The notes beneath the pieces are model-generated. The model made no database searches and was not told the origin of the DNA. It was given only the letters and a program-made list of their open reading frames with translations. Made by a program: the position numbers and the translations under genes. DNA of 64,000 bases, from the NCBI RefSeq assembly GCF_057098645.1, contig NZ_CM169472.1. One strand, given 5' to 3'. This document shows positions 8,203 to 59,870 of the stretch, one piece after another. Position 1 is the first letter of the stretch. Each line of letters starts with the position of its first letter.

Positions 8203-8205
8203 GTT

Positions 8206-9165: not shown

Positions 9166-10186
9166 AGGCGCTACGCGTAATGCGATGGTGCGACCGCGTT
9201 TTGTCGCGCCATTGCCATAAGCGGAAAGACCACAGTAACGCCTGGTAACCCACCTTCACGCTGCGCACATTGGTAATCAGGCGCTTATACATACCGGAAG
9301 TAAATATCTCGGCAATCATCCGTTGGCGGGTAAGAATATCCGGCTCTTTGCGCACCGCATGGCAAACACGCAATGCTTCGTAAGTTATTTGCTGATGAAA
9401 TTCCGGATAAATCGTAATTTTGTCGGCATAATTTCGATTTAATTTCTCCAGCAGGCGGGTAATCTTAATATAGTGACGTTGATAATTAAGGTTTTTATTC
9501 CCTTGTCTATGCAACCGACTCACTGACGTATTATGCAGATAATATTTATATAATGATTGCTCGGTATATCGCGCACGCAGCGCGTTAAACATGAATTCTG
9601 TTGTCCAGACAATATCCTGATGATGTAATCCGGCAATAAATTTAATGTTATTTTTAACAATAACATCGCGGCGATAAACCCCCATCCAGACCACGTGTGT
9701 CCAACGGCGCGAAGAAAGCCCCATCCGCAGCCAGTCCGGGCCGGTTAAGACGCCGGTTGAGCGAAGGCGATCGGTGGGGATGGATTGCCAGGTTTCTCCC
9801 GTTTCACGAAAACACCAGTCAGCGTTGCACTGCGCCACGTCGAGGTCGTCCTCTAACGCCATGGTCATCAGCGTTTCGTACATGGTGGGATAGACTTCAT
9901 CGTCAGCATCGACAAAAGCGACATATTTGCCCGTTGCCACTTCAATCCCACGATTACGCGCCACCGATGCGCCAGCATTCGCCTGATGCAACAAACGAAC
10001 GTGCGGATAGTTTTCTGCGTAATACTTTGCTATTTCAACAGAATTATCCGTTGAACCATCGTTAATAATAATGATTTCCAGAGCAGTCCAGGTTTGCGTA
10101 ATTAAAGATTCCATACAAGTACGGAAATCATCGCCCGCATTATATAACGGAATAATAACACTAAGTTTATTGGTGCTGTTCATCAT
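9152..10186 (-). CDS. waaH: Family-2 glycosyltransferase WaaH (YibD), LPS core modification
   Basis: 344-aa ORF, N-terminal GT2 signature (LSVIIPLYNAGDDF...DGSTDNS...DADD); convergent 14-bp overlap with yibQ. Confidence 0.85.
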   Translation of the reverse strand: MMNSTNKLSVIIPLYNAGDDFRTCMESLITQTWTALEIIIINDGSTDNSVEIAKYYAENYPHVRLLHQANAGASVARNRGIEVATGKYVAFVDADDEVYPTMYETLMTMALEDDLDVAQCNADWCFRETGETWQSIPTDRLRSTGVLTGPDWLRMGLSSRRWTHVVWMGVYRRDVIVKNNIKFIAGLHHQDIVWTTEFMFNALRARYTEQSLYKYYLHNTSVSRLHRQGNKNLNYQRHYIKITRLLEKLNRNYADKITIYPEFHQQITYEALRVCHAVRKEPDILTRQRMIAEIFTSGMYKRLITNVRSVKVGYQALLWSFRLWQWRDKTRSHHRITRSAFNLR

Positions 10187-10394
10187 AAATTACCGACGAC
10201 CTCTGAAGTTATCCTGACGTTTTACAGGCTTTGTATTAAGAAACTATTAAGCCTGTGAGATATTATTTTTACAGGTGAGAGAGTCACTTCAGGGTAGAGA
10301 GATAATGAGAGCAGCTATATAAGAGATCAGCACAATTACGAACTCTTTATTACACTGACAGGATTTTACATATTTAACAGATTATCCTCAGATA

Positions 10395-10418
10395 AAAGGG
10401 CTGGAATACCAGCCCTTG
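10395..10418 (-). terminator. Rho-independent terminator downstream of kbl-tdh
   Basis: Minus-strand hairpin aagggctgg-tatt-ccagccctt followed by T-rich tract, immediately 3' of tdh stop. Confidence 0.5.
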
Positions 10419-10424
10419 TTCGTG

Positions 10425-11450
10425 TTAATCCCAGCTCAGAATAACTTTCCCGGACTGGCCCGAACGCATAGCGTCAAAGCCCTTCTGGAAATCATCGATA
10501 GAGAAACGATGGGTAATGATCGGCGAGAGATCGAGGCCAGACTGAATCAGCGCCGCCATCTTGTACCAGGTTTCAAACATCTCACGACCGTAAATACCTT
10601 TAATGAACAAGCCTTTAAAGATCACTTTGGTCCAGTCGATAGACATATCAGACGGTGGAATACCCAGCATCGCAATGCGACCGCCGTGGTTCATGGTGTC
10701 GAGCATGGTACGAAACGCTGGCGGCGCACCAGACATTTCCAGACCGACATCAAAGCCTTCGGTCATGCCTAACTCCGCCATCACGTCATTGAGATTTTCT
10801 TTGGCGACGTTAACCGCACGGGTGATACCCATTTTACGCGCCAGCTCAAGGCGGTATTCATTAACATCCGTGATCACCACGTTGCGTGCACCAACGTGTT
10901 TCGCCACCGCCGCAGCCATAATACCTATCGGCCCTGCACCAGAGACCAGCACATCCTCGCCAACCAGATCGAACGACAGCGCGGTATGCACGGCGTTACC
11001 GAAGGGATCAAAAATGGAAGCCAGGTCGTCGGAGATATTGTCTGGGATTTTGAAGGCGTTGAACGCCGGGATCACCAGATATTCGGCGAAGCAGCCCGGA
11101 CGGTTAACGCCGACGCCGATCGTGTTGCGGCACAGATGGGTACGACCGCCACGACAGTTGCGACAGTGACCGCAGGTGATATGGCCTTCGCCAGAAACGC
11201 GATCGCCGATTTTGAAGCCTTTCACTTCCTGACCAATACCTACCACTTCACCGACATATTCATGGCCTACGACCATCGGCACCGGGATGGTTTTTTGCGA
11301 CCACTCATCCCAGTTATAGATGTGAACGTCAGTCCCGCAGATGGCTGTTTTACGGATTTTAATCAGCAGATCGTTATGCCCGAGTTCCGGTACAGGAACG
11401 TCGGTCATCCAGATGCCCTCTTCCGCTTTCAGTTTGGATAACGCTTTCAT
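10425..11450 (-). CDS. tdh: L-threonine 3-dehydrogenase (Zn-dependent)
   Basis: 341-aa ORF with zinc-ADH motifs ([16 protein letters not shown]). Confidence 0.95.
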
Positions 11451-11459
11451 CTCACATCC

Positions 11460-42145: not shown

Positions 42146-44227
42146 ATGACAGGTCGCCTGTTAGATGCTGTCCCACTCAGTTCCCTAACGGGCGTTGGCG
42201 CAGCACTTAGTAACAAACTGGCGAAAATCAACCTGCATACCGTGCAGGATCTACTCTTACACCTTCCCCTGCGCTACGAAGATCGCACCCATCTCTACCC
42301 CATCGGAGAACTACTGCCGGGCGTTTATGCCACGGTGGAAGGCGAAGTGCTGAACTGCAATATCTCCTTCGGCGGTCGGCGGATGATGACCTGCCAGATC
42401 AGCGACGGTTCCGGCATCCTCACCATGCGCTTTTTCAATTTCAGCGCGGCAATGAAAAATAGCCTGGCGACGGGCCGCCGTGTACTGGCTTATGGCGAAG
42501 CAAAGCGCGGTAAATATGGTGCGGAGATGATCCACCCGGAATACCGCGTGCAGGGCGATCTCAGCACGCCAGAATTACAGGAAACGCTCACGCCGGTTTA
42601 TCCAACAACGGAAGGCGTAAAGCAGGCCACGCTGCGTAAATTAACCGACCAGGCGCTGGATCTGCTCGACACCTGCGCCATTGAAGAACTCCTGCCGCCG
42701 GAACTGTCACAAGGAATGATGACGCTACCGGAAGCGTTGCGCACTTTGCACCGCCCGCCACCGACGCTACAGCTTAGCGATCTGGAAACCGGGCAGCATC
42801 CGGCGCAACGTCGTCTGATTCTGGAAGAACTGCTGGCGCACAACCTCAGCATGTTAGCCTTACGTGCCGGAGCACAGCGTTTTCATGCCCAGCCGCTGAG
42901 CGCCAATGATGCGCTGAAAAATAAACTCCTCGCAGCCTTACCGTTCAAGCCAACGGGCGCACAGGCACGCGTAGTGGCGGAGATCGAGCGCGATATGGCG
43001 CTGGATGTGCCGATGATGCGCCTGGTACAGGGCGATGTAGGTTCCGGTAAAACGCTGGTCGCCGCCCTCGCCGCGCTGCGTGCGATTGCCCACGGCAAAC
43101 AGGTGGCATTGATGGCACCAACCGAATTACTCGCCGAACAGCACGCCAATAACTTCCGCAACTGGTTTGAACCGCTCGGTATCGAAGTGGGCTGGCTCGC
43201 CGGTAAGCAGAAAGGCAAAGCGCGACTGTCTCAGCAGGAAGCCATCGCCAGCGGTCAGGTGCAGATGATTGTTGGTACGCACGCCATCTTCCAGGAACAG
43301 GTGCAGTTTAACGGTCTGGCGCTGGTGATTATCGACGAACAACATCGCTTTGGCGTGCATCAGCGTCTGGCGTTATGGGAGAAAGGCCAGCAGCAAGGCT
43401 TCCATCCGCATCAGTTGATCATGACCGCCACGCCGATCCCCCGCACGCTGGCAATGACGGCGTATGCCGATCTCGATACCTCGGTGATAGATGAGCTGCC
43501 GCCAGGCCGCACGCCAGTGACTACGGTCGCTATTCCTGATACCCGCCGTACCGACATCATTGACCGCGTGCGCCACGCCTGCATAACTGAAGGTCGTCAG
43601 GCGTACTGGGTTTGTACGTTGATTGAAGAGTCAGAGTTACTGGAAGCGCAGGCGGCGGAAGCTACCTGGGAAGAGTTGAAACTGGCGCTACCAGAATTGA
43701 ATGTTGGCCTGGTACACGGGCGGATGAAACCAGCCGAGAAACAGGCGGTGATGGCGTCGTTTAAACAAGGTGAGCTACATCTGCTGGTTGCCACTACCGT
43801 TATTGAAGTCGGTGTTGATGTGCCTAACGCCAGCCTGATGATTATCGAAAACCCTGAGCGTCTGGGTCTGGCGCAGTTACACCAGCTTCGCGGGCGTGTA
43901 GGTCGTGGTGCGGTGGCTTCTCACTGCGTGCTGCTCTACAAAACGCCGCTCTCCAAAACCGCGCAAATTCGGCTGCAAGTGCTGCGCGACAGCAACGACG
44001 GTTTTGTGATTGCACAGAAAGACTTAGAGATTCGCGGACCGGGTGAACTGTTAGGTACGCGTCAGACGGGTAATGCTGAGTTTAAAGTGGCGGATTTACT
44101 GCGCGATCAGGCGATGATCCCGGAAGTTCAGCGCCTGGCGCGACATATTCACGAACGTTACCCACCACAAGCAAAAGCCCTGATAGAACGCTGGATGCCG
44201 GAGACGGAACGTTACTCCAACGCATGA
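42146..44227 (+). CDS. recG: ATP-dependent DNA helicase RecG
   Basis: ORF 42113..44227 (GTG in track); start set at ATG encoding MTGRLLDAVPLSSLTGVG (693 aa); Walker A GDVGSGKT, DEQH box. Confidence 0.95.
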   Translation: MTGRLLDAVPLSSLTGVGAALSNKLAKINLHTVQDLLLHLPLRYEDRTHLYPIGELLPGVYATVEGEVLNCNISFGGRRMMTCQISDGSGILTMRFFNFSAAMKNSLATGRRVLAYGEAKRGKYGAEMIHPEYRVQGDLSTPELQETLTPVYPTTEGVKQATLRKLTDQALDLLDTCAIEELLPPELSQGMMTLPEALRTLHRPPPTLQLSDLETGQHPAQRRLILEELLAHNLSMLALRAGAQRFHAQPLSANDALKNKLLAALPFKPTGAQARVVAEIERDMALDVPMMRLVQGDVGSGKTLVAALAALRAIAHGKQVALMAPTELLAEQHANNFRNWFEPLGIEVGWLAGKQKGKARLSQQEAIASGQVQMIVGTHAIFQEQVQFNGLALVIIDEQHRFGVHQRLALWEKGQQQGFHPHQLIMTATPIPRTLAMTAYADLDTSVIDELPPGRTPVTTVAIPDTRRTDIIDRVRHACITEGRQAYWVCTLIEESELLEAQAAEATWEELKLALPELNVGLVHGRMKPAEKQAVMASFKQGELHLLVATTVIEVGVDVPNASLMIIENPERLGLAQLHQLRGRVGRGAVASHCVLLYKTPLSKTAQIRLQVLRDSNDGFVIAQKDLEIRGPGELLGTRQTGNAEFKVADLLRDQAMIPEVQRLARHIHERYPPQAKALIERWMPETERYSNA

Positions 44228-44411
44228 CCAGACTCATCACAAGACAAGTCACGCAGTAAATCTTCAATCTGGATAGTGAGGATATCCATTGCCTCATACG
44301 CATCCTGTGCAATTCGCGCCGCCATTGCGCCTTCCGGTTCACCACGCAGAATTTCAGCCGCTGCCTGTATGAACCGCCCCGGTTTTCCTGGAGAGTGTTT
44401 TATCTGTGAAC

Positions 44412-45299
44412 TCAGGCTGCCAGATCATCGTTTCTGATGGAAGCATAATAAGCTTTTTCTGCTTCTGCCGGAGGGATATGACCCAGCCTTCCCAGCAATC
44501 GTCGATTGTTATACCAGTCCACCCACGTGAGTGTGGCCAGTTCCACTTCTGCACGGTTTTTCCAGCTCTTACGGTGTATTACCTCCGCTTTGTAAAGACC
44601 ATTGATGCTCTCCGCCATCGCGTTGTCATACGAGTCACCTGTACTCCCTGTTGATGCCAGCAGTTTTGCTTCTTTTAGTCGCTCCGTATAGGCCAGTGAT
44701 ACATACTGAGAACCTTTATCACTGTGATGGACTGTGCCGGACGGCCGACGGGCCCACAACGCCTGCTCCAGTGCATCCAGCACGAATGTCGTTTCCATAG
44801 ACGATGAGACTCGCCACCCCACGATACATCCGGCAAACACATCAATGATGAACGCCACATAGACGAAGCCCTGCCATGTGCTGACGTAAGTAAAATCAGC
44901 CACCCACAGCTGGTCAGGACGTTCTGCCACGAACTGACGGTTTACGCGGTCGCCTGCGGAAACGGCTTTCCGGCTGACGGTAGTACGGACCTTTTTACCC
45001 CGGAGAACACCGGCAAGTCCCATAACCGCCATGAGACGTGCCACAGTGCATCTGGCCACTCTGATACCTTCCCGTAACAACTGACGCCAGACTTTACGCA
45101 CACCGTATACCTTGTGATTTTCATCGTATACGCGCTGTATCTCTCTCTTCAGCCAGTCATCGCGCTGAGCACGGGCACTGCGTTTATCAGGATGATGTCG
45201 CTGTTGCTGACAGTGGTAATACGTTGACGGGGCAATATGCAGTTCACTGCATACCGGTCCGACCCCGTACTGCTCACGCAGCTTATCCAGCAGCGGCAT
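44412..45299 (-). CDS. IS3-family transposase OrfB (DDE integrase core), normally expressed as an OrfAB fusion by -1 frameshift
   Basis: 295-aa ORF with DDE-domain sequence (…HHSDKGSQYVS…DNAMAESINGLYKAE…). Confidence 0.9.
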   Translation of the reverse strand: MPLLDKLREQYGVGPVCSELHIAPSTYYHCQQQRHHPDKRSARAQRDDWLKREIQRVYDENHKVYGVRKVWRQLLREGIRVARCTVARLMAVMGLAGVLRGKKVRTTVSRKAVSAGDRVNRQFVAERPDQLWVADFTYVSTWQGFVYVAFIIDVFAGCIVGWRVSSSMETTFVLDALEQALWARRPSGTVHHSDKGSQYVSLAYTERLKEAKLLASTGSTGDSYDNAMAESINGLYKAEVIHRKSWKNRAEVELATLTWVDWYNNRRLLGRLGHIPPAEAEKAYYASIRNDDLAA

Positions 45300-45625
45300 T
45301 ATTTTTTCCAGAGGCGGTCGAACTCCGCCTTCGCAAAATAAGCGGAAGCCTGGCGAAGGATATCGTTACTGCGGCGCAGTTCACGATTTTCACGTTCCAG
45401 CTCTTTCAGACGCTGACGTTCAGCGGTGGTGAGTCCACCATCACCACTCCCGGTATCCCGCTCATGCTGACGAACCCACACACGCAGAGTCTCTGGTGTA
45501 CAGCCAATCTTTGGGGCAATGGAACAAATTGCCGCCCATTGTGAGTCATATTCGCCCTGACTTTCCAGAACCATACGAACTGCCCGTTGACGGACCTCGG
45601 GGGAAAAACGTGTATTTTTAGTCAT
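45299..45625 (-). CDS. IS3-family transposase OrfA (HTH protein)
   Basis: 108-aa [36 protein letters not shown]...[36 protein letters not shown], recognised as IS629-type. Confidence 0.9.
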
Positions 45626-46393
45626 CCTGTTTACCTCTTTCTCAGGGAGTTTAGTCTCCAGGATTCCCGGGGCGGTTCAGTACGCCAGCCACAATCATTT
45701 CAGGTGTTAACATTTGGCGAAGAAAAGCGCGATTATCAGAGGACCAGCCATCTTTATGGCCTAATGGATGCCCCCAGCCTATCCATTCTTGCGACCATAA
45801 CGGATTGGCTTCTATGGGATAAATTAGATGCGCGGCATACTGAATAGCACACACCGCTTTTCCTGGCGTATCCAGCGCCCACCAGCGCGACCAGAGAGAA
45901 CGAATTAACGGCGCGGCCCCACCCAGAGTATTGAACACCGCCAGCCAGCAAAGAACGTTATTGAAACCACGCTCGTTATCCATACGCTGCAACGCGGTGT
46001 CCAGTAAAAATTGCCGTACCTGCTGGCGTTGGGAAGCATTCATCATCTCCTGCCAGAGATAGGGCCGACACAATGCCTTCATTAAGGATTCTTCGAAGTG
46101 ATCACCATAACCGCCAGCTAAAACGGTTTCATGCCATTGCGCCAGGCAGAGCGGAAACAGATAGCGAAACAACTCTATTTGCATCGGTTCGTTATAAACG
46201 AGATTGAGTACATAGTAAGCACTCAAATCCCATTCGCTGATCTGCTGCCACTCTTTAGCCGCCAGCGCCTTGAGTTCGGCATCTGCGTAATCAAATTCCG
46301 TTTCCCATACACAGAGCACTGGCGGCTCATCACCAAAAATATGGCGACAGTGTTCACGTAGCGTTTCCGGTTCCTTCCGACGCTTTTTCATTT

Positions 46394-47599
46394 TTAACCG
46401 GCAAAAATCGGCAACATTAAATACAGCTTAATCACCAGCGCATTGACGATATCGATAAAGAACGCACCGACCATCGGCACCACCAAAAACGCCATGTGCG
46501 ACGGGCCAAAGCGTTCAGTGATCGCCTGCATGTTGGCGATTGCCGTTGGCGTTGCACCGAGGCCAAAACCACAGTGACCCGCAGCCAGCACTGCCGCATC
46601 GTAGTTTTTGCCCATCATGCGCCAGGTAACGAAGATGGCATACAACGCCATGAAGATGGTCTGTACCACCAGAATCGCCAGCATCGGCAGCGCCAGCGAA
46701 GCCAGCTCCCACAGTTTCAGCCCCATCAGCGCCATCGCCAGGAACAACGACAGGCTTACGTTACCCAGCACGGATACCGCACGCTCAAAGACGCGGTAAA
46801 AGCCCATCATTGACAGACCGTTGCTCAGAATCACGCCAACAAACAGTACACAGACGAAGGTCGGCAGTTCAAAAGCAGTGCCAGCCAAAAGTTGCGCAAC
46901 AATTTTCCCCACCGTCAGGCAGATAGCAATCAGCGCGATAGTTTCAATCAGCACCAGCGAGGTGATCATGCGACCCACATCCGGCTTTTCAAACGCCGTC
47001 GGGACTTCCTGGTCATCCGGAATACCGTTCGGCGTGGTGGAGTGTTTCACCAGATAGCGCGCCACCGGACCGCCAATCAAGCCGCCCAGCACCAGACCGA
47101 ACGTTGCACAGGCCATCGCCACTTCCGTCGCATTGGTGAAGCCATAACGTTCAATGAACAATTTACTCCACGCAGCGCCCGTACCGTGACCGCCGGAAAG
47201 CGTAATAGAACCGGCCAACAGCCCCATCAGCGGATCAAGCCCTAACAGGCTAGCCATACCAATGCCAATGGCATTTTGCATCACCAACAGACCAACAACC
47301 ACAATCAAGAAGATGCCAACCACACGCCCACCGGCACGCAAACTGGCAATGTTGGCGTTCAGGCCAATGGTGGCGAAGAAAGCCAGCATTAACGGATCGC
47401 GCAGGGACATATCAAAGTTGACTTCCCAGCCCATGCTTTTTTTCAGTACTAGTAGCGCCAGCGCCACCAACAAACCACCCGCAACAGGTTCCGGTATGGT
47501 GTATTTCTTCAAAAAGGAGACGGAATGGACCAACTTACGCCCGAGCAGCAACGTCAGCGTTGCGGCAACAAGCGTTGCTAAAGTATCGAGATGAAACAT
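46394..47599 (-). CDS. gltS: Sodium/glutamate symporter
   Basis: 401-aa polytopic membrane ORF MFHLDTLATLVAATLTLLLGRKLV... Confidence 0.9.
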   Translation of the reverse strand: MFHLDTLATLVAATLTLLLGRKLVHSVSFLKKYTIPEPVAGGLLVALALLVLKKSMGWEVNFDMSLRDPLMLAFFATIGLNANIASLRAGGRVVGIFLIVVVGLLVMQNAIGIGMASLLGLDPLMGLLAGSITLSGGHGTGAAWSKLFIERYGFTNATEVAMACATFGLVLGGLIGGPVARYLVKHSTTPNGIPDDQEVPTAFEKPDVGRMITSLVLIETIALIAICLTVGKIVAQLLAGTAFELPTFVCVLFVGVILSNGLSMMGFYRVFERAVSVLGNVSLSLFLAMALMGLKLWELASLALPMLAILVVQTIFMALYAIFVTWRMMGKNYDAAVLAAGHCGFGLGATPTAIANMQAITERFGPSHMAFLVVPMVGAFFIDIVNALVIKLYLMLPIFAG

Positions 47600-47878
47600 A
47601 GTTACTCCTTTGTATCCGCATCACTCTTTCATACTCGTCATACTTCATCGCGCAGTGGCAACTTCATGAACTATGACGGGTATCGAGTTATGCTTTCCTG
47701 GGTCAAATTCTCAGCTGTTAATGAACAAATGGCATGGATTTTAAGCAGAAAAATACCAAAAGTTATATAAAAAAGTGCATTTATCTCATTTAAATATTTA
47801 GATGAGGATGTGGCAAACGTTTGCTTTTCTCTTTCGGTCAGCTAAAATGCCCGCTTTGCTACCACGGGATTGTTTTCG

Positions 47879-49270
47879 ATGTCTGTTTCCACCCTCGAGT
47901 CAGAAAATGCGCAACCGGTTGCGCAGACTCAAAACAGCGAACTGATTTACCGTCTTGAAGATCGTCCGCCGCTTCCTCAAACCCTGTTTGCCGCCTGTCA
48001 GCATCTGCTGGCGATGTTCGTTGCGGTGATCACGCCAGCGCTATTAATCTGCCAGGCGCTGGGTTTACCGGCACAAGACACGCAACACATTATTAGTATG
48101 TCGCTGTTTGCCTCCGGTGTGGCATCGATTATTCAAATTAAGGCCTGGGGTCCGGTTGGCTCCGGGCTGTTGTCTATTCAGGGCACCAGCTTCAACTTTG
48201 TTGCCCCGCTGATTATGGGCGGTACCGCGCTGAAAACCGGTGGTGCTGATGTTCCTACCATGATGGCGGCTTTGTTCGGCACGTTGATGCTGGCAAGTTG
48301 CACCGAGATGGTGATCTCCCGCGTTCTGCATCTGGCGCGCCGCATTATTACGCCGCTGGTTTCTGGCGTTGTGGTGATGATTATCGGCCTGTCGCTAATT
48401 CAGGTTGGGTTAACGTCCATTGGCGGCGGTTACGCAGCCATGAGCGATAACACCTTCGGCGCACCGAAAAATCTGCTGCTGGCAGGCGTGGTCTTAGCCT
48501 TAATTATCCTGCTTAACCGTCAACGTAACCCTTACTTACGCGTGGCCTCACTGGTGATTGCGATGGCGGCCGGATATGCGCTGGCGTGGTTTATGGGCAT
48601 GTTGCCAGAAAGCAACGAACCGATGACGCAAGAACTGATTATGGTGCCAACGCCGCTCTATTACGGTCTTGGCATTGAATGGAGTCTGCTGCTGCCGCTG
48701 ATGCTGGTCTTTATGATCACTTCGCTGGAAACCATTGGCGATATCACGGCGACCTCTGACGTTTCCGAACAGCCAGTGTCCGGTCCGCTGTACATGAAAC
48801 GCCTGAAAGGCGGCGTGCTGGCAAACGGCCTGAACTCGTTTGTTTCGGCGGTGTTTAACACCTTCCCGAACTCCTGCTTCGGGCAAAACAACGGAGTGAT
48901 CCAGTTGACTGGTGTTGCCAGCCGCTATGTCGGTTTTGTCGTCGCGCTGATGTTGATCGTGCTGGGTCTGTTCCCGGCAGTGAGCGGTTTTGTACAACAC
49001 ATTCCAGAACCGGTTCTGGGCGGCGCAACGCTTGTAATGTTTGGCACCATCGCCGCCTCCGGTGTGCGTATCGTTTCTCGTGAGCCGCTGAACCGTCGGG
49101 CGATTCTGATTATCGCGCTGTCGCTGGCGGTTGGTCTGGGCGTGTCTCAGCAGCCGCTGATTTTGCAGTTTGCCCCTGAATGGCTGAAAAACCTGCTCTC
49201 CTCCGGGATCGCCGCGGGCGGTATTACTGCCATCGTGCTGAATCTGATTTTCCCACCAGAAAAACAGTAA
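47879..49270 (+). CDS. xanP: Xanthine permease (NCS2 family)
   Basis: ORF 47870..49270; start at [12 protein letters not shown]... (463 aa). Confidence 0.9.
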
Positions 49271-49276
49271 TTCACT

Positions 49277-49303
49277 GGCGGCGGTAAGATAATTACCGCC
49301 GCA
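49277..49303 (+). terminator. Putative hairpin downstream of xanP
   Basis: ggcggcggtaa-gata-attaccgccgc inverted repeat just after the xanP stop; no strong T-run. Confidence 0.4.
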
Positions 49304-49390
49304 GTCTCACCTCTTTCACCATTCCCGCCTTGAGGATTGCGCGTAAATCGTGCATAACTCCCTTATGTGCATTTCACGGGATGGAAGACC

Positions 49391-51100
49391 ATGAAATTTA
49401 TTGGGAAGCTGCTTCTCTACATTCTCATCGCTCTGTTAGTGGTGATCGCTGGCCTCTATTTTCTTCTGCAAACCCGCTGGGGAGCAGAACATATCAGCGC
49501 ATGGGTTTCCGAGAATAGCGACTATCATCTGGCCTTCGGGGCGATGGATCACCGTTTTTCCGCGCCATCTCATATCGTGCTGGAGAACGTCACGTTTGGT
49601 CGTGATGGTCAGCCCGCGACCCTGGTGGCAAAAAGTGTCGACATTGCGCTAAGCAGTCGGCAACTGACCGAACCACGCCATGTCGATACCATCCTGCTGG
49701 AAAACGGGACGCTGAATCTCACCGACCAGACCGCGCCGCTACCGTTCAAAGCCGATCGTCTGCAACTGCGTGATATGGCGTTTAATAGCCCGAATAGCGA
49801 ATGGAAACTGAGCGCGCAGCGGGTAAATGGCGGCGTGGTTCCGTGGTCACCAGAAGCCGGTAAAGTGCTGGGTACGAAGGCGCAGATTCAGTTTAGTGCC
49901 GGATCGCTTTCGCTCAATGATGTTCCTGCCACCAATGTACTGATTGAAGGCAGTATTGATAACGATCGCGTTACGCTGACTAACCTGGGTGCCGACATCG
50001 CCCGCGGGACATTAACCGGAAACGCGCAGCGTAACGCCGACGGCAGCTGGCAAGTGGAAAATCTGCGCATGGCGGATATCCGTCTACAAAGCGAAAAATC
50101 GCTAACCGACTTCTTTGCGCCATTACGCTCTGTCCCGTCGTTGCAGATTGGTCGCCTGGAAGTGATCGATGCTCGTTTGCAAGGTCCGGACTGGGCGGTG
50201 ACCGACCTCGATCTCAGCTTGCGCAACATGACCTTCAGTAAAGATGACTGGCAGACACAAGAAGGCAAACTGTCGATGAACGCTAGCGAGTTCATTTATG
50301 GTTCGCTGCATTTATTTGACCCGATTATAAACGCGGAATTTTCCCCGCAGGGCGTAGCGCTGCGCCAGTTCACCAGCCGCTGGGAAGGGGGTATGGTCAG
50401 AACGTCAGGGAACTGGCTGCGTGACGGGAAAACGTTGATCCTTGATGATGCGGCAATTGCCGGGCTGGAATATACCTTGCCGAAAAACTGGCAACAGTTG
50501 TGGATGGAAACGACACCCGGTTGGTTAAACAGCCTGCAACTGAAGAGATTTAGCGCCAGCCGCAATCTGATCATTGATATCGACCCTGACTTCCCGTGGC
50601 AGCTCACCACGCTCGATGGTTACGGTGCCAACCTGACGCTGGTTACCGATCATAAATGGGGCGTCTGGAGTGGCTCGGCGAATCTGAATGCCGCCGCCGC
50701 GACATTCAATCGTGTTGATGTTCGTCGCCCGTCGCTGGCGCTGACCGCCAACAGCAGCACGGTGAATATCAGCGAACTGAGTGCATTTACTGAAAAAGGC
50801 ATTCTGGAAGCCACTGCCAGTGTTTCACAAACGCCACAACGTCAGACCCATATCAGCCTGAATGGACGCGGTGTGCCGGTGAATATTTTGCAACAATGGG
50901 GATGGCCTGAATTACCGTTGACTGGCGACGGCAATATTCAGCTTACCGCCAGTGGCGATATTCAGGCCAATGTCCCGCTGAAACCTACGGTTAGCGGGCA
51001 ACTCCATGCCGTGAACGCCGCAAAGCAGCAAGTGACTCAAACCATGAATGCGGGCGTCGTTTCCAGTAGCGAAGTTACATCGACAGAGCCGGTGCAGTAA
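49391..51100 (+). CDS. yicH: AsmA-family protein
   Basis: ORF 49367..51100; start at MKFIGKLLLYILIALLVV... (569 aa), N-terminal TM anchor. Confidence 0.85.
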   Translation: MKFIGKLLLYILIALLVVIAGLYFLLQTRWGAEHISAWVSENSDYHLAFGAMDHRFSAPSHIVLENVTFGRDGQPATLVAKSVDIALSSRQLTEPRHVDTILLENGTLNLTDQTAPLPFKADRLQLRDMAFNSPNSEWKLSAQRVNGGVVPWSPEAGKVLGTKAQIQFSAGSLSLNDVPATNVLIEGSIDNDRVTLTNLGADIARGTLTGNAQRNADGSWQVENLRMADIRLQSEKSLTDFFAPLRSVPSLQIGRLEVIDARLQGPDWAVTDLDLSLRNMTFSKDDWQTQEGKLSMNASEFIYGSLHLFDPIINAEFSPQGVALRQFTSRWEGGMVRTSGNWLRDGKTLILDDAAIAGLEYTLPKNWQQLWMETTPGWLNSLQLKRFSASRNLIIDIDPDFPWQLTTLDGYGANLTLVTDHKWGVWSGSANLNAAAATFNRVDVRRPSLALTANSSTVNISELSAFTEKGILEATASVSQTPQRQTHISLNGRGVPVNILQQWGWPELPLTGDGNIQLTASGDIQANVPLKPTVSGQLHAVNAAKQQVTQTMNAGVVSSSEVTSTEPVQ

Positions 51101-51111
51101 AAATCAATCTC

Positions 51112-51139
51112 GCCGGGTACGACTCAGACGTACCCGGCA
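51112..51139. terminator. Hairpin between convergent yicH and yicI
   Basis: gccgggtacg-actcaga-cgtacccggc inverted repeat. Confidence 0.5.
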
Positions 51140-51152
51140 TTCCATCAATAGA

Positions 51153-53471
51153 TTACAACGTAATTGTCAGCGCATTCCCTTGAGGCGTCACCACCAGCCC
51201 CTGCTCACTTTCAGCCTGCGAACCACCTTGCAGACCATTTACTTTCACAATATTGCGCAAGCACAGTGTCCAGTTCTTCGCCTCGCCCGCACCAGTCACA
51301 GTAATCGTGTTGCCAGTACGCGCCGCTTTCAGGGTGAAAAGAACGGAACCGTCAGCAGCGGGCACTTCACAGATGGCTTCATGCCCGTCTTGTAGATTAA
51401 AGAGCTGGAATGCCGTGCCTTCGTGCCACGCGTAATCGGGACGTTGCTCGTTGTTGCCCAGCGCCAGTAGGGTGTTATCACGCACATAAACGGGCAGACT
51501 CAGGAAGCTGTGCTGCTGTTTATGCCAGCGACTACCATCGAGTTCATCGTTGTGCCACAGATGTGTCCAGCGACCTTCCGGCAAGTAGAACTGCACATCG
51601 CCCGCTTCACTGAACACCGGAGCAACCATCACGTTGTCGCCTAACATGTATTGACGGTCAAGGTAATCACAAGCCGGATCGTCCGGGAACTCCATCATCA
51701 TGGCCCGCATCATCGGCGTACCCCGCGCGTTCGCACGAGCAGCTTCACGATACAGATACGGCATCATGCGGCATTTCAGTTGCGTGAAGAAGCGCACCAC
51801 ATCACAGGACTCATCATCGTAGGCCCACGGCACACGATAAGATTTGCTGCCATGTAAACGGCTATGGCTGGAGAGCAAACCAAACGCGCACCAGCGTTTG
51901 TAAACGTGCGCCGGAGCGGTATTCTCAAAGCCGCCGATATCGTGGCTCCAGAAACCAAAACCTGAAAGGCCAATAGACAAACCACCGCGCAGGCTTTCCG
52001 CCATTGATTCGTAGTTAGCGTAACAGTCACCACCCCAGTGTACCGGGAATTTCTGCGCACCAACGGAGGCCGAGCGGGCAAACAAGACGGCTTCTTCCTC
52101 GCCAACGGTGTCCTTGAGCACGTTCCACACCAGTTCGTTGTAGATGTACGCATAATGGTTATGCATTTTCTGCGGATCGGAACCGTCAAACCACTGAACA
52201 TCGATTGGAATACGTTCGCCAAAGTCGGTCTTAAAGCAATCAACGCCCATCGCGACCAGACCTTTCAGTTTGTCGGCGTACCATTTGCAGGCATCCGGAT
52301 TGGTAAAGTCATAAATCGCCAGACCTGGCTGCCATTTATCCCACTGCCATAACGAACCGTCCGGGCGTTTGAGTAAATAGCCTTTCTCTTGTAACTCTTT
52401 AAAGACAGGGGATTTTTGCCCGATATAGGGGTTAATCCAGACGCAGATTTTTAGCCCTTTCGCTTTCAGGCGGCGGATCATCCCTTCCGGGTCCGGGAAA
52501 GTCAGCGGGTCCCACTCAAAATCGCACCACTGGAAGGCTTTCATCCAGAAACAGTCAAAGTGAAAAACATGCAGTGGCAGATTGCGTCCCGCCATACCAT
52601 CGATAAAGCTGTTTACCGTCGCTTCGTCGTAGTTGGTGGTAAATGAAGTGGTTAGCCACAGGCCGAAGGACCACGCGGGCGGCAGCGCCGGACGACCAGT
52701 AAAACGGGTATAACGATCAAGTACCGCTTTCGGCGTCGGGCCGTCGATAACAAAGTATTCGAGATATTCACTCTCAACGCTGAACTGCACTTTGGAGACT
52801 TTCTCCGATCCCACTTCAAAAGAGACGCATTGAGGATGATTGACCAGTACCCCATAGCCACGGTTAGTCATATAGAACGGGATATTTTTATACGCCTGTT
52901 CAGTACTTGTGCCGCCGTCCCGGTTCCAGGTCTCTACCGTCTGGCCATTGCGCACCAGGGCAGTAAAGCGCTCTCCCAGACCGTAAACTGTTTCGCCAAC
53001 GCCAAGATCCAGCCGCTCAAACATATAATTTCGTTGATTATTCGTGTCCTGCACGTAGCCATTATTTTTCACCTGACTACCGGTAATACGTTCGCCGTTG
53101 CGCAGAAAATCCAGTGACCAGAACTCACCTTTGCTGACACGCGCGCTTAAGTTGCCACTTTTAAACTCAGCGTAACGTTCTGTGTTTTCGATTGTGACCT
53201 TCACGTCCTGCAAAATATTGAGCGGATAATGAGGACCATTATTCAGCGCCCCCTGAAAATGCTCAATCCGTACACCGACAATACCTTCCTGTGGGGAGAA
53301 AAAGCGCAGCGTAAATAAAGGCGTATCAAGCTGCCAGGTTCGTTCACGCACATCACGGGGGGCAGCATAGACCACCATTTCATTACCCTGCTGTTCAACC
53401 TCGAACACCTGAAGCGGGTGAATCAAATTGAGGCCAGGTTGAATCAACCAGTTTCCGTCGCTAATTTTCAT
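51153..53471 (-). CDS. yicI: Alpha-xylosidase (GH31)
   Basis: 772-aa [26 protein letters not shown]... Confidence 0.9.
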
Positions 53472-53480
53472 TGCCGTTCC

Positions 53481-54863
53481 TTAGTTCTGCACTTCTTGAG
53501 AGGTGAATTGTTGCTGGCAACGGCGTTTGCCCTGGGCCAGCGGTTCCATAACGGTTTTCAGATTGTGCGTCGTGAGTGAGTAGTAGCGTTTAGCGATAAT
53601 CGCGCTCAGCAAATAACAGATCGCCGGAACAATCGTGAATAGCGCAATAATGATGCTAATCGTGGCGCTGTTCTGCGCTTTTTCTGCCGCATCATATCCG
53701 CCATAAGCCAGCATCCAGCCGATAAGAGCGCCGCCGAAGGCCAACCCCAGTTTGAGCACAAACAGCGTGCCAGCAAAACTGATCCCGGTCAGGCGTTTAC
53801 CATTGCACCACTCGCCGTAGTCGACGGTATCGGACATCATTACCCACTGGATAGGTGTCACCAGTTGATGCAACACACCAATCACGAAGATGAAGACAAA
53901 CATAGTGATGCTGGCCTGCATAGGAACAAAGAACATCGCGAGGCTAATCACTGCCAGCAGGGCGTTCGTCCACCAGAAGATAGTGACTTTACATTTCCAG
54001 TCGGTCAGCGGTTTTGCCAGTGCGGAACCAATCAGGTTACCCACGCAATAAGTGGTGAGAAAAGCGACAAACACTTCCGGCGTACCCAAAATCCATGTGA
54101 CGTAATACATCATCGCTCCACCGCGGACGCACACCGCCAGGATATTGAAAATGGTTAGTAAACCGACAATCCGCCACTGGTCGTTTTGCCAGATATCACG
54201 TAAATCTTCCCGCATAGACGTCGTTGTAGGTGGTGCTTCAACGCGTTCTTTAGTGGTGAAGAAACAGAATGCCAGCATCATGAATGCCACCACGGAAAGG
54301 ACCGCGATACCGCCCTGGAAACCGAGTGGTTTATTATCACCGCCAATTAAATTAACCAGTGGCATCATCAGAACAGTAGAGAGCATGCCTCCCGCGGTCG
54401 CCAGCACAAAACGCCAGGATTGCAGCGAGATACGCTGAGTCGGGTCATTGGTGATTACACCACCCAATGCGCAGTAAGGGATATTGACGACGGTATAAAG
54501 TAAGGTAAGTAGGGTGTAAGTAATTGCTGCATAGATCATTTTGCCGTTCATACTGAGATCTGGCGTGCTATAGGCCAGTACACAGACGATCCCAAATGGC
54601 AGTGCGCCACACAGTACCCACGGACGAAATTTACCCCAGCGAGAGCGCGTTCGATCGGCCAACAACCCCATGCAAGGATCGGAAATCGCATCCAGTGCAC
54701 GAGCGACCAAAAACATGGTTCCGACAAATCCGGCAGGTATGCCAAAATTATCGGTATAAAAGAACATCATATATAACATTACGTTATCGAAAATAATGTG
54801 GCTGGCGGCGTCTCCCATGCCATAACCAATTTTCTCTTTAACGGACAACACTTCACTCATCAT
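53481..54863 (-). CDS. yicJ: GPH-family sugar:cation symporter
   Basis: ORF 53481..54920; start set at internal Met (MMSEVLSVKEKIGYGMGDA...) for a 460-aa product. Confidence 0.85.
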   Translation of the reverse strand: MMSEVLSVKEKIGYGMGDAASHIIFDNVMLYMMFFYTDNFGIPAGFVGTMFLVARALDAISDPCMGLLADRTRSRWGKFRPWVLCGALPFGIVCVLAYSTPDLSMNGKMIYAAITYTLLTLLYTVVNIPYCALGGVITNDPTQRISLQSWRFVLATAGGMLSTVLMMPLVNLIGGDNKPLGFQGGIAVLSVVAFMMLAFCFFTTKERVEAPPTTTSMREDLRDIWQNDQWRIVGLLTIFNILAVCVRGGAMMYYVTWILGTPEVFVAFLTTYCVGNLIGSALAKPLTDWKCKVTIFWWTNALLAVISLAMFFVPMQASITMFVFIFVIGVLHQLVTPIQWVMMSDTVDYGEWCNGKRLTGISFAGTLFVLKLGLAFGGALIGWMLAYGGYDAAEKAQNSATISIIIALFTIVPAICYLLSAIIAKRYYSLTTHNLKTVMEPLAQGKRRCQQQFTSQEVQN

Positions 54864-55155
54864 CTGCTTTTCCTTGATGCTATAGGGGTGCTGAGACCGA
54901 TAACGCATTTTGTAAACCATCCCTGTGAGAGCGAATATTCCGATATCTGGTTATTAATTTATGATTCTTGTTTTATGTGATCGTGGTAGCGTTAATTCCG
55001 CTCATATATCATTGTAAAATATGGGTTTTATATGAATTATAATGCTTTCGTGATAATACGCTGCGTGTATTAGGCGGAAAAAACTGATCTGGGGGATGTA
55101 GAAACTCAAGGAAGTAGCTATAATGCGCCCCGCCTCCATGTAGCAATCGAGGCGC

Positions 55156-55250
55156 GGAAGATCGTCGTCTCCGGTGAGGCGGCTGGACTTCAAATCCAGT
55201 TGGGGCCGCCAGCGGTCCCGGGCAGGTTCGACTCCTGTGATCTTCCGCCA
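55156..55250 (+). tRNA. selC: tRNA-Sec (selenocysteine, anticodon UCA)
   Basis: 95-nt sequence GGAAGATCGTCGTCTCCGGTGAGGCGGCTGGACTTCAAATCCAGT...GTGATCTTCCGCCA with long variable arm, 8-bp acceptor stem and encoded CCA. Confidence 0.9.
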
Positions 55251-55412
55251 AACCTCATCCAGCCAGTTCCGAGACACTCCATAAAATCATTTATATTCAA
55301 TGCGATGAATAATCAGCTTGTCCGTAATAGTCCGAGATCATCTCCCTGAATCCGCGAAAAATATGTATAGTAATGTGTATAGATTTTTTATACGTAGTTT
55401 TCAGTTATACAC

Positions 55413-56591
55413 ATGGCCCTAACCGATATACAGATCAAACGTGCAAAACCACAAGACAAACCATACACATTAAACGATGGACAAGGTCTGTCATTGCTTA
55501 TCAATCCCGATGGCTCGAAAGGCTGGCGTTTCCGTTTCCGGTTTGCAGGGAAAGCGCGGTTAATGTCATTTGGCAGCTACGATTTAGTAAGCCTCGCAGA
55601 AGCACGTGAGAAACGCGATACGGCTCGTAAGCAGGTAGCAAACGGCATTGATCCAGTAGCAGAGCGTAAGGCTCAGAAAATTGCTCAGAAATTATCAACT
55701 GAAAACTCTTTTGAGGCCGTTAGCAGAGAATGGCATGCAGCAAAAGCAGATCGCTGGACTTTAGCTTATCGCGAAGAAATTATTAAAACATTTGAACAGG
55801 ATGTTTTTCCTTTCATTGGTAAACGGCCAATAGCTGAAATTAAACCCCTAGAACTGCTTGAAGTTCTTAAACGCATAGAAAAACGTGGAGCGTTGGAGAA
55901 AACCAGAAAAGTACGTCAACGATGCGGAGAGGTGTTTCGCTACGCGATCATCACTGGCCGCGCTGAATACAATCCAGCACCTGATTTAGCTATCGCATTA
56001 GCTGTACCGAAGCAAAAACATCATCCTTTTCTATCAGCAGAAGAACTCCCTCATTTTGTCAGAGATCTTGAGGCTTACACAGGTAGCATAATCACTAAAA
56101 ATGCAACTAAAATTGTGATGCTTACTGGAGTCAGGACACAGGAAATGCGTTTTGCCACTTGGGACGAAATTGATTTACAAAAAAAGGTATGGGAAATACC
56201 GGCCGAACGAATGAAAATGCGCCGACCACATCTTGTACCACTCTCCACTCAAGTAGTTGAAATTTTTCAACAACTCAAGCTAATCACCAAAAACTATCCA
56301 TATATTTTTATCGGCCGTAATAATCACACTAAGCCAATTTCTAAAGAAAGTGTATCCCAAGTAATAGAATTACTTGGCTATAAAGGAAGAGCTACGGGCC
56401 ACGGATTCCGCCATACAATGTCTACTATTTTGCATGAGTACGGATTTAACAGCGAATGGATAGAATTACAATTGGCTCATGTTGATAAGAATAGTATTCG
56501 AGGCACTTATAATCATGCCCAATATTTAGAAAAGAGAAGTTCTATGATGCAGTGGTACAGTGATTATATCCTTAATAGAGATAAAGCATAG
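55413..56591 (+). CDS. int: P4-family tyrosine integrase, adjacent to the tRNA-Sec 3' end
   Basis: 392-aa ORF with N-terminal arm-binding region (…AKPQDKPYTLNDGQGLSLLINPDGSKGWRFRFRFAGK…) and C-terminal catalytic residues (…HGFRHT…LAHVDKNSIRGTYNHAQY). Confidence 0.9.
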   Translation: MALTDIQIKRAKPQDKPYTLNDGQGLSLLINPDGSKGWRFRFRFAGKARLMSFGSYDLVSLAEAREKRDTARKQVANGIDPVAERKAQKIAQKLSTENSFEAVSREWHAAKADRWTLAYREEIIKTFEQDVFPFIGKRPIAEIKPLELLEVLKRIEKRGALEKTRKVRQRCGEVFRYAIITGRAEYNPAPDLAIALAVPKQKHHPFLSAEELPHFVRDLEAYTGSIITKNATKIVMLTGVRTQEMRFATWDEIDLQKKVWEIPAERMKMRRPHLVPLSTQVVEIFQQLKLITKNYPYIFIGRNNHTKPISKESVSQVIELLGYKGRATGHGFRHTMSTILHEYGFNSEWIELQLAHVDKNSIRGTYNHAQYLEKRSSMMQWYSDYILNRDKA

Positions 56592-56646: not shown

Positions 56647-57513
56647 ATGAAGAAGACAGTACTTATAACTGATTTAGATAACACACTATTCGACTGGTTT
56701 AGCGTTTGGTATCATAGCTTTAATGCAATGCTAAATAAAGTCGTTGAGATTTCCGGTTTTTCTAAAGACGAGCTTATTGCACAGATAAAACCAATTCATC
56801 AAAAATATGGTACTGCCGAATACTCTTTTATTCTAGAAAGCATACCTCTTTTACAAGAAAAATATGGTGATAGAAACTCCATCAATTTAGTTATGGATGA
56901 TGCTATACACGCTTTCAGAAGTGAGAGAAAGAAATATCTTTCTCTGTACCCAACAGTAATGGACACTTTGAGTGTATTAAAAAGTAAAGGGTGTTATATT
57001 GTCGCGTATACTGAATCCAAAGCTTATTACTCCAATTTCCGCTTAACAAGATTAGGATTAGATGGTGTGATTGATGTCCTTTTCTCTCCTGAAGATCATG
57101 AAATCCCTGATGGTGAGAAAAAACAAGATAAATATAATCTAATGCTGACAAAGCAAGAATATACACCTATTGATGAAATTAAACCAAACCCACAACTTCT
57201 TCTGGACATAATAAAATCAATTGGTGCCACACCAGAAGAGTGTGTATATATAGGTGACAGTGAAATGAAAGATATAGAAATGGCCCAAAAAGCAAACGTA
57301 TCAGATGTTTTTGCAAGCTATGGAACGAATCATTTTGAAGAGAACAAGGAGGGATATGAATTACTCCGTGCGGTAACCCACTGGACTGATGCTGATGTTG
57401 AAAGGGAAAGAAAAATTAAAGAAAATGCCTTCGGAGCAAAACCCACATATGTAGCCAAACAATTTTCAGATATTTTGTCTTTTTTTGAATTTACAAAATT
57501 TAAAGGAAAATAG
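56647..57513 (+). CDS. HAD-superfamily phosphohydrolase (subfamily IA-like), cargo gene 1
   Basis: Track ORF 56641..57513 (TTG); first ATG gives MKKTVLITDLDNTLFDW (motif I DxDxT), later EIKPNPQ (motif III Lys) and YIGDSEMKDIEMA (motif IV GDxxxD); AT-rich; RBS aagga upstream. Confidence 0.8.
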   Translation: MKKTVLITDLDNTLFDWFSVWYHSFNAMLNKVVEISGFSKDELIAQIKPIHQKYGTAEYSFILESIPLLQEKYGDRNSINLVMDDAIHAFRSERKKYLSLYPTVMDTLSVLKSKGCYIVAYTESKAYYSNFRLTRLGLDGVIDVLFSPEDHEIPDGEKKQDKYNLMLTKQEYTPIDEIKPNPQLLLDIIKSIGATPEECVYIGDSEMKDIEMAQKANVSDVFASYGTNHFEENKEGYELLRAVTHWTDADVERERKIKENAFGAKPTYVAKQFSDILSFFEFTKFKGK

Positions 57514-57514
57514 A

Positions 57515-58147
57515 ATGAACGATCTAGAATTAAAGAAACATGATGACGCTATAAAATTAGAAAATCTCAAGTTGAAAATTGATATCTGGAAGACAGTTGT
57601 TGACGTTCAGAAACATTTTAATGATCTTGAGATGAAGGTTAGAAACTTCGGAATTTTGATCTTGTCTGCATTTATTGGTGCAATTGGTGTAAGCTTTAAT
57701 TCCGGCGCTGAATTTATAGCCTTTGGCAATCATTACTCTGTTGCTGCCATTCTTGCTTTCGGGGCATCTGTTGTTTGGTTGTTATTTTATTTTGTTGACG
57801 TTTACTGGTATCACCCATTACTTCTTGGAGCTGTAAAGAAAGGTTCAGAACTCGAAAAAGAAATTGCATCCGACATCCCAGGAATTAATCTTACAGAAAC
57901 CATAGGAAAAAGTAGCCCAAAAGATATTTTGCTCTGGAAAAATATGCATAGTACTGGAAAAGCTAACCTTTTCTACTTTGGGGTTTTAGCTGTTCTGTTA
58001 ACTATTTTTATTTCTCTACTGTGCTTTAAAGCCCCGCAAAAGACAAATCAACTAAATGAATTAAATATTAAAGCAAATTGCACTAGAAACAGTAATTACA
58101 ATGGAGTTAATTGCATTATCGCATCACAGCCAAGTGACAACAAATAG
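57515..58147 (+). CDS. Small membrane protein with three predicted TM helices, cargo gene 2
   Basis: Track ORF 57485..58147 (TTG); first ATG (MNDLELKKHDD...) lies 1 nt after the HAD stop; hydrophobic helices ILILSAFIGAIGVSF, VAAILAFGASVVWLLFYFV and LFYFGVLAVLLTIFISLLCF; AT-rich. Confidence 0.7.
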   Translation: MNDLELKKHDDAIKLENLKLKIDIWKTVVDVQKHFNDLEMKVRNFGILILSAFIGAIGVSFNSGAEFIAFGNHYSVAAILAFGASVVWLLFYFVDVYWYHPLLLGAVKKGSELEKEIASDIPGINLTETIGKSSPKDILLWKNMHSTGKANLFYFGVLAVLLTIFISLLCFKAPQKTNQLNELNIKANCTRNSNYNGVNCIIASQPSDNK

Positions 58148-58237
58148 TGCACTTTATCACTCTTTACCCCAACTGCATGTACTTACCTTGTGAGCACAGA
58201 GACGCGCTATAAATAAACACTTTACTGCTGGCGGGCG

Positions 58238-58256
58238 GTGCTTTCCCCGCCTCGCC
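58238..58256 (-). other. P2/P4-type cos site (19-nt cohesive-end sequence)
   Basis: Plus strand gtgctttccccgcctcgcc; reverse complement GGCGAGGCGGGGAAAGCAC matches the P2/P4 cohesive end as I recall it; lies between the cargo pair and psu. Confidence 0.65.
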
Positions 58257-58359
58257 CGCCCGCTTTGCAGGGCGGTTTTAATGCAGTTGCACAGTCACGC
58301 TCAGGCTGCGCCGGGAATGGCGCGGTCTGCAGAGAATGAGGCAGGAAAACGCATGCAAA

Positions 58360-58420: not shown

Positions 58421-58993
58421 TTACACAGACTGACGTGATGCCAGTTGCGCACTTTTACGCGAAAAAATCATGTTCTGCGCAGGGGTGAATTTTTCACGGC
58501 TGTCATCCACCGAAGCCGCGTCAGGCCTGAATCCGATGGTCGTTAAAATGTCGCTATCCTGTGCGGAATAATTAATTTTTTCACCCTTCGCAAGCCAGGA
58601 CAGGAGGGCTTCACGCAGGGCATCTGTGGCACGCTGTATGGCACAGTTTCGGGCAATGGCCGTCAGCTCACTGTAGCCCATCAGCTCCGGTGCCAGTGCC
58701 GCCGCCAGTGCTGTGCCGTGCTGCTGCATAAAATCATTCAGCCGATCGCGGATGCTGATGTGCTGAACGGCTTCATGCGAACGAATATAACGACCGGCGG
58801 CCTGATTCACCTGCCATTTTCTGACTTCGATAATATTGCGTAATTCGTCCAGGCGACTGACGTTTCTGCCTTCTCCTGACAGAAGCCGCAGATATTCCTG
58901 TTCGGCCGCAGCCAGCTCATTTTTGCGTTGCAGCCATGCTGCTTTGTTATTCTGACAGGTGTCAAAGGCCTGCTGTAAGGCTGTGCTTTCCAT
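58421..58993 (-). CDS. psu: P4-type polarity suppression protein (capsid decoration / Rho antagonist)
   Basis: 190-aa ORF MESTALQQAFDTCQNNKAAWLQRKNELAAAEQEY... recognised as P4 Psu; sid-delta-psu gene order. Confidence 0.85.
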   Translation of the reverse strand: MESTALQQAFDTCQNNKAAWLQRKNELAAAEQEYLRLLSGEGRNVSRLDELRNIIEVRKWQVNQAAGRYIRSHEAVQHISIRDRLNDFMQQHGTALAAALAPELMGYSELTAIARNCAIQRATDALREALLSWLAKGEKINYSAQDSDILTTIGFRPDAASVDDSREKFTPAQNMIFSRKSAQLASRQSV

Positions 58994-59066: not shown

Positions 59067-59567
59067 TCATTCCAGACGCAGCGAATATGATTGTGTTTTT
59101 AACCGTACTGGCGGCAGTTCCTGTTTTTCATGCAGGCTTTCTGCCAGTTCGTCCGGCGTGACCGGGCGGACAATGAAGCGGTTGATGGTCTGAAGCGTTT
59201 TAAACACCAGACCACAGCCCGGATCCGTGCACACATAAAAACGCTCGGTGACTTCCTGAGACAGACGCCGCGATGTTCTTGACAGCGCAAGGCCTTTACA
59301 TCTCCGACAACAATATCCGGTAACAAGCATTCTTTTCGGGCGCTTCATGCTACCGGAGGCTGACGTCAGTGAATCGCGGTATCTCTGTTTGCCTGAAATG
59401 TATTCCATTCCTGAATCTTTACAGTCAGAGAAAAAGCTTTCACTCGCTTCAAATGTCGCAGAGCAATAAATATTCCGGCACTGTGCAATCATTATCTTGG
59501 TGCCATCGTCCATGAAATGTGCGCGACGGGTGTGAGCAACATGTCCACACGACGGGCAGTAAATCAT
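59067..59567 (-). CDS. delta: P4 Delta-type late transcription activator (two fused Ogr-like zinc-finger domains)
   Basis: 166-aa ORF with two Cys clusters (CPSCGH…CRNIYC and CCRRCKG…CTDPGC). Confidence 0.85.
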   Translation of the reverse strand: MIYCPSCGHVAHTRRAHFMDDGTKIMIAQCRNIYCSATFEASESFFSDCKDSGMEYISGKQRYRDSLTSASGSMKRPKRMLVTGYCCRRCKGLALSRTSRRLSQEVTERFYVCTDPGCGLVFKTLQTINRFIVRPVTPDELAESLHEKQELPPVRLKTQSYSLRLE

Positions 59568-59790
59568 GACAGCAGTCCTCTGGCCTTAAGCACTGCTCCC
59601 TGCTGGTCTATTTTGTCCTGCCACACCTTGCGCTGTGCCGGTGTGCCTGCCACCTCATAATCCATGTGCGGGAGTGTTGCCGCTGACAGTCCGGTCAGCC
59701 GGAGAACCGGCTCGCCGGTGAGGCTGATTTGCATCTGTTTTATTTTCTGTTCCAGCGATGATTTCACCTGCTGCGTATTCCGCTCTATTC
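59564..59790 (-). pseudogene. sid: 3' fragment of P4 sid (capsid size determination), separated from its 5' part by an IS21-family element
   Basis: ORF 59564..59842: the first ~17 codons come from the IS end, the remainder (RIERNTQQVKSSLEQKIKQMQISL…KARGLLS) is the Sid C-terminus, with a 4-bp overlap onto the delta start. Confidence 0.6.
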
Positions 59791-59870
59791 GATCACGGAT
59801 TGGCATCGAAGTCCGATCAGCGATTCGCATCCATTCGATCAACCGGGAACTTAACTTTTTCTACCGCTTT

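Follow-up and report, generated by a model that had tools for sequence, protein, structure and literature searches.

The stretch of DNA analyzed here, called the window throughout, is 64,000 nucleotides long and holds a P4-family satellite that is integrated at selC and truncated by the end of the window. Reading inward from the chromosome, the order is the tRNA-Sec gene with attL, int, a two-gene defense cargo, cos, psu, delta, sid (split by an insertion sequence), ori and vis, with coordinates given in Table 1. The open reading frames of int, misB, misC, psu and delta are all intact. The attR site and the replication genes (the alpha primase-helicase and epsilon) of this copy lie beyond position 64000, and complete relatives that share its int-cargo-cos module carry alpha, epsilon and attR in elements of 9,953-10,490 bp. 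The 23-nt att core lies at the 3' end of selC, and its two copies are spaced 10,490 bp apart in strain MS 16-3 and 9,953-10,188 bp apart in three other strains.

Table 1. Features of the selC satellite within the window (positions in the 64,000-nt stretch).
Feature	Position	Strand	Basis or remark
tRNA-Sec gene (selC), chromosomal integration target	55156..55250	+	ARAGORN
attL core, 23 nt, GACTCCTGTGATCTTCCGCCAAA	55230..55252	+	repeated as attR in complete relatives
P4 Int-type tyrosine integrase (int) with arm-binding, central and catalytic domains	55413..56591	+	Pfam Arm-DNA-bind_3, Phage_int_M, Phage_integrase
Cargo gene 1, HAD-family phosphatase (MisB; 'Hydrolase')	56647..57513	+	PADLOC Hydrolase 6e-198; Pfam HAD_2
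Cargo gene 2, membrane protein (MisC; 'Hydrolase-TM' effector)	57515..58147	+	PADLOC Hydrolase-TM 9e-141
Cargo-linked spacer, misC stop to cos block	58148..58230		part of variable slot
55-bp cos block common to P2 and P4	58231..58285	-	aligned to the joined P4 and P2 record ends
Perfect 8-bp inverted repeat	58231-58238 / 58256-58263		symmetric about the 19-mer and the two inferred nick sites
19-nt cohesive end GGCGAGGCGGGGAAAGCAC	58238..58256	-	exact single match; equals P2 cosL/cosR
GC hairpin and T-run, CCGCCCGCTTTGCAGGGCGG TTTTAATGCA	58256..58285	+	in conserved psu-side flank; consensus scan
psu (polarity suppression / capsid decoration)	58421..58993	-	Pfam Psu 1e-88; 97.5-98% DNA identity to P4
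delta (Ogr/Delta zinc-finger activator of helper late genes)	59067..59567	-	Pfam Ogr_Delta; 98% P4 DNA identity
sid 3' fragment (capsid size determination)	59564..59771	-	aligns to P4 up to 10107
IS21-family (ISSso4-like) element, istA and istB	59772..62410	-	5-bp duplication CCTGC; ends ambiguous by 1-3 nt
sid 5' fragment	62411..62941	-	95.5% identity to P4 from 10119 downward
vis/alpA-type HTH regulator (P4 ORF88 homologue)	63494..63760	+	within P4 match 62405-63970

The minus strand from 63970 to 58257 corresponds to P4 positions 8554-11624 (ORF88/vis, ori, sid, delta and psu), broken by 2.6 kb. This psu-delta-sid-ori-ORF88 segment keeps the P4 gene order at 95-98% DNA identity, and ORF88 of P4 is annotated as an excisionase/regulator. 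All of the core genes looked for in P4-like satellites (psu, delta, sid, alpA/vis and int) were found, with sid interrupted by the IS. The last 30 nt of the window (63971-64000) match neither P4 nor MS 16-3, though the preceding 1.5 kb do, and may mark where a variable immunity region or another insertion begins.

P4 integrates at a leucine tRNA gene, whereas the window satellite occupies selC, and its integrase, a protein identical to WP_001218980.1, is only 38% identical to P4 Int (E 2e-96). The satellite phiR73, which we compared by its description rather than its sequence, is also a P4-family element in a selenocysteine tRNA gene, with an accessory retron near int where the window satellite has MisB-MisC. 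This retronphage (Sun, Inouye & Inouye 1991, as cited in PMC6174562) is described as a P4-like cryptic prophage at selC and is the earlier precedent for an element of this kind there.

Neither P4 nor MS 16-3, the nearest complete genome, has the IS element that splits sid, and copies 99.9% identical to it, annotated as IS21-family istA and ISSso4-family istB, occur in many E. coli genomes. Because sid is split, the window copy cannot direct small capsids alone. If the part past 64000 resembles that of MS 16-3, we infer that the element spans ~13.1 kb instead of 10.5 kb.

Both cargo proteins match their PADLOC models over their full length, and MisC has three hydrophobic segments. In NCBIfam we found no specific family for MisC, and for MisB only generic HAD matches below the cutoff. 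MisB is identical to WP_000754434.1 and MisC to WP_000998640.1, a pair listed repeatedly in the hotspot table of Rousset et al. 2022 (PMC9122126), and in strain E6 the identical genes are already labeled misB/misC in RefSeq. A near-identical pair from E. coli, cloned in the same study, blocks T7 (PMC9122126); MisB of the window is identical to protein 1 of that construct, and MisC is two residues off protein 2. Judged by these sequence identities, the cargo is the HAD-hydrolase plus three-transmembrane anti-T7 system of Rousset et al. 2022, which corresponds to type II Metis (MisB/MisC). The pair is thus already catalogued, and a version with two changed residues in MisC has already been tested.

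The published role of the HAD phosphatase and three-transmembrane system is to abort infection by lytic phages, and this architecture, in which, as in the window pair, a protein with three membrane-spanning segments comes after a HAD phosphatase, has been named type II Metis (bioRxiv 10.1101/2025.11.05.686725). In the same preprint MisB dephosphorylates basal m6dAMP, and MisC is proposed to sense the m6dAMP set free by phage degradation of Dam-methylated host DNA and to form a pore in the membrane. The type II system studied there comes from Phyllobacterium, and it is for that system that Dam- and m6dAMP-dependent activity was reported; the window pair is likened to it by architecture and by the RefSeq labels.

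Between the cargo and psu, the minus strand from 58256 to 58238 reads exactly GGCGAGGCGGGGAAAGCAC, 19 nt that occur once in the window, whether searched for exactly or with up to three mismatches. The same 19-mer is annotated as cosL (1-19) and cosR (33575-33593) of P2 (NC_001895) and forms the first 19 nt of P4 (NC_001609), so the sequence-only reading was right to recognize the reverse complement of 58238-58256 as the P2/P4 cohesive end. That reading also proposed comparing the flanks with the published cos regions, and the agreement extends well into them. We anchored an alignment of the window, six other E. coli selC satellites, P4 and P2 on the 19-mer, and found that in all of them it is preceded by TGCATTAAAACCGCCC(C/T)G..AAGCGGGCG and followed by (C/T)GC(G/C)CGC. 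The resulting block of 55 bp places the 19-nt cohesive end between a psu-side flank of 29 nt and a cargo-side flank of 7 nt; when aligned with the joined record ends, it matches P4 at 53/55 positions and P2 at 50/55. The cos site is described as '55 bp long' in PMC9594776, which cites Ziermann & Calendar 1990, and a core cos signal is common to P4 and P2 as their packaging signal (PMC9122126).

The likeness to P4 goes beyond the block itself. In P4 (junction 11596-11624 plus 1-26) cos also lies directly downstream of psu and is also the edge of a non-essential region reaching int, and the psu-side flank of the window is 98.2% identical to P4 over 1.5 kb, up to the IS in sid. Within the block the window differs from P4 by two substitutions, C to T at -13, which is common in satellites, and G to C at +4, which is rare. 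Beyond +7 the DNA is unrelated, with gop-beta-cII in P4 and misB-misC in the window satellite. The P2 cos, with its identical 19-mer, likewise adjoins a variable defense locus (old/tin); its flanks beyond the 55 bp are unrelated to the window, and on one side P2 has portal and terminase genes.

From these comparisons we conclude, with a probability of about 90%, that 58231-58285 is the cos site of the P4-family satellite at selC, with packaging that by homology would be P4-like. The genome ends of P2 and P4 place the presumed staggered nicks at 58257/58256 on the minus strand and 58237/58238 on the plus strand. Given an active P2-type helper, the satellite would be excised via Int and then replicate, and the helper terminase would recognize the 55-bp block common to P2 and P4. 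Nicks 19 nt apart, at both edges of 58238-58256, would yield linear DNA with 5' GGCGAGGCGGGGAAAGCAC cohesive ends, which would be packaged into helper-made capsids. In the linear genome the end that starts with the 19-mer would carry the cargo and int, and the opposite end psu, an arrangement like that of P4, where gop-beta-cII-int lies at the genome end starting with the 19-mer. Packaging by a P2-type terminase, which had been put forward from the 19-mer, is a likely extension that follows from conservation of the site. Within the window we found neither a second cos nor a helper prophage.

The cargo-side flank carries an uncommon variant of the site. The seven nucleotides at 58231-58237 read CGCCCGC in the window and TGCGCGC in 118/123 sampled P2/P4-type junctions, a set that comprises IMG/VR contigs (~117) and six E. 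coli loci other than the window. Among these junctions the base at +4 is G in 122 and C in MS 16-3 only. The CGCCCGC allele was found in none of the ~117 IMG/VR viral-contig junctions tallied, and the exact junction sequence with CGCCCGC had no match in IMG/VR. It is the rare C at +4 that makes the inverted repeat around the 19-mer perfect (Table 1); the flanking 7 nt are symmetric at 5/7 positions with the usual allele and at 6/7 in P4.

The allele has nevertheless traveled. CGCCCGC was present in 4/4 other MisBC satellites examined, on at least three psu-side haplotypes, and a metagenome scan for the CGCCCGC junction returned two contigs, one with the same module and one with a PARIS-like (AriA/AriB) cargo. 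The latter contig rules out that the C at +4 is private to MisBC cargo. Its spread over haplotypes and to a PARIS-like cargo indicates a heritable cos allele and not a private lesion, and this heritability argues that the cos allele may well still function.

These observations bear on the strongest alternative, that cos is a relic, P4-type by descent but now part of a decaying, immobile satellite or weakened by the G-to-C change at +4. The split sid gene fits such decay, as does the absence of the +4 C allele from the IMG/VR junctions and of an exact junction match there, and the remainder of the element lies past 64000 and outside the view of the window. Against this stand an intact 19-mer with 53/55 of the block, the intact int, misB, misC, psu and delta reading frames, and a nick-site symmetry that the C at +4 improves. 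At least five additional E. coli strains carry the variant too, on at least three psu-side haplotypes, as does the metagenome contig with a different, PARIS-like cargo, which points to an allele that kept moving between satellites. In P4, mutation of sid does not stop packaging, which then takes multimers into large capsids. We thus consider a relic improbable.

A second alternative, that the block is conserved mainly as a terminator of the cargo operon or as a recombination hotspot and that its identity as cos is incidental, fares considerably worse. The 29-nt flank does contain a terminator-like hairpin and T-run on the cargo-sense strand, and the 19-mer is the exact point at which between-strain divergence switches, as described below. 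A terminator consensus scan around cos found one candidate where 0.5 were expected, the hairpin at 58256-58285 is predicted for single-stranded DNA too (z -2.6), and a scan for sigma-70 promoters around cos found none. The hairpin and T-run face the cargo operon and may terminate misB-misC transcripts. However, the block is conserved in P2-type phages that have different neighboring genes, and P2 and P4 share it as a packaging signal (PMC9122126). A role in termination or recombination would be an additional function of the site and not an alternative to cos, so a purely non-packaging explanation is very unlikely. The last alternative, a chance match or the cos of a P2-type prophage, has a negligible probability: only the GC-rich, low-complexity look of the 19-mer favors chance, which is ruled out by an expectation of 0.01 matches even at three mismatches (dinucleotide-preserving shuffles), and a P2-prophage cos is ruled out by flanks that are 98% P4 and not P2, with psu, delta and sid as neighbors and no adjoining P2 structural genes.

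With 58231-58285 taken as the cos of the satellite, its position marks one edge of the cargo slot. Similarity on the cargo side stops 7 nt past the 19-mer, and the window, the six satellites, P4 and P2 all diverge pairwise at the eighth nucleotide. The variable genes between cos/psu and int begin beyond this point, at +8, and in the same slot other selC satellites of E. coli strains have an AAA ATPase, Drt4, a HEPN protein or a DEAD-box helicase pair. The spacer between misC and the block (58148-58230) behaves as part of the slot, being identical in satellites with the same cargo allele and unrelated in those with other cargo. These alignments show cos as the fixed edge of the hotspot: the exchangeable cargo begins 8 nt beyond the 19-mer and reaches to int.

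Two further proposals drawn from the sequence before this analysis, that cos directly bounds the cargo slot and that the interval from int to cos is the classic accessory slot, agree with this picture and with the literature. Rousset et al. 2022 place the P4 hotspot between psu and int, directly beside cos (PMC9122126), as do De Sousa & Rocha (PMC8628076). In locus, cos adjacency and cargo pair the window shows no essential difference from the hotspot of Rousset et al., and the arrangement of cos with an adjoining defense slot is already on record for thousands of P4-like satellites in E. coli. What the window copy adds is the IS that splits sid and, at cos, the rare CGCCCGC flank. For annotation, the cos assignment would fix the orientation and one end of the satellite virion genome, and it marks misB-misC as probable mobile, helper-phage-transducible defense cargo.

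Comparison of related satellites showed that sequence divergence changes abruptly at this edge. Between the window and MS 16-3 there are 2 differences in the 3,101 nt from attL through the 19-mer and 22 in the next 1,518 nt (Fisher p = 3e-9), and the first psu-side difference comes 13 nt after the 19-mer. Three complete relatives show 0-1 differences over the 3 kb that follow attL and differ in the remainder up to attR. Between strains the 3.1-kb att-int-cargo-cos arc is almost identical, with 0-3 differences; the psu-to-alpha arc diverges by ~0.3-2% per 300 nt, all the way to both edges.

In satellites with the AAA-ATPase cargo the pattern of divergence runs in both directions. JML285 and VG1046-3E9 differ at 4/3,255 positions on the cargo side and 23/1,344 on the psu side, and JML285 and EC19 differ at 244/3,255 positions on the cargo side, the last of them at +1 past the 19-mer, and at 15/1,344 on the psu side. 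By these counts att-int-cargo-cos behaves like a cassette whose limits are the two programmed break sites of the element.

The gene content next to the module varies as well. In PigCaeca_2, E6 and CH4804 (locus 12909-13155) an 81-aa Ogr/Delta gene replaces the 166-aa delta of the window and P4. Both forms occur beside an identical int-misBC-cos, which shows different late-gene modules joined to the same cassette.

One possible explanation is that the 19-mer and the att core are the exact edges of an independently assorting cassette, which would be exchanged via two programmed DNA breaks and not by ordinary homologous recombination. Cohesive ends of different satellite genomes could join, followed by Int-mediated att x att resolution; alternatively, packaging from cos to cos across tandem or dimeric satellites could be followed by the same Int-mediated step. 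By either route the 7 nt past the 19-mer, including CGCCCGC, would travel with the cargo side. We hold this explanation tentatively, at a modest probability clearly short of even odds, because the divergence switch was sampled in a handful of genomes. Exchange promoted by cohesive ends was raised by Rousset et al. as speculation only (PMC9122126), and according to a 2026 preprint the recombination process still awaits elucidation. If the switch at the 19-mer and att holds across many satellites, it would provide a concrete mechanism for fast swaps of defense cassettes.

To the left of selC the window is ordinary E. coli chromosome, with yicJ, yicI, yicH and xanP as annotated in relatives. Relative to the window, MS 16-3 has ~7.2 kb of additional DNA between yicH and yicI (locus 2776-10031), missing at window position ~51104-51129, that encodes a PTS fructose transporter, aldolases, a ROK kinase and a BglG antiterminator. 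The chromosomal flank also has an unexpected match in GenBank: MG065691 and MG065686 (named 'Campylobacter phage A11a/A18a'; 174 kb) share ~11 kb with window 44000-55252 at 98.5% identity. The matching stretch is gltS..yicJ and selC of the E. coli chromosome, and its presence in these two records looks like contamination or misassembly.
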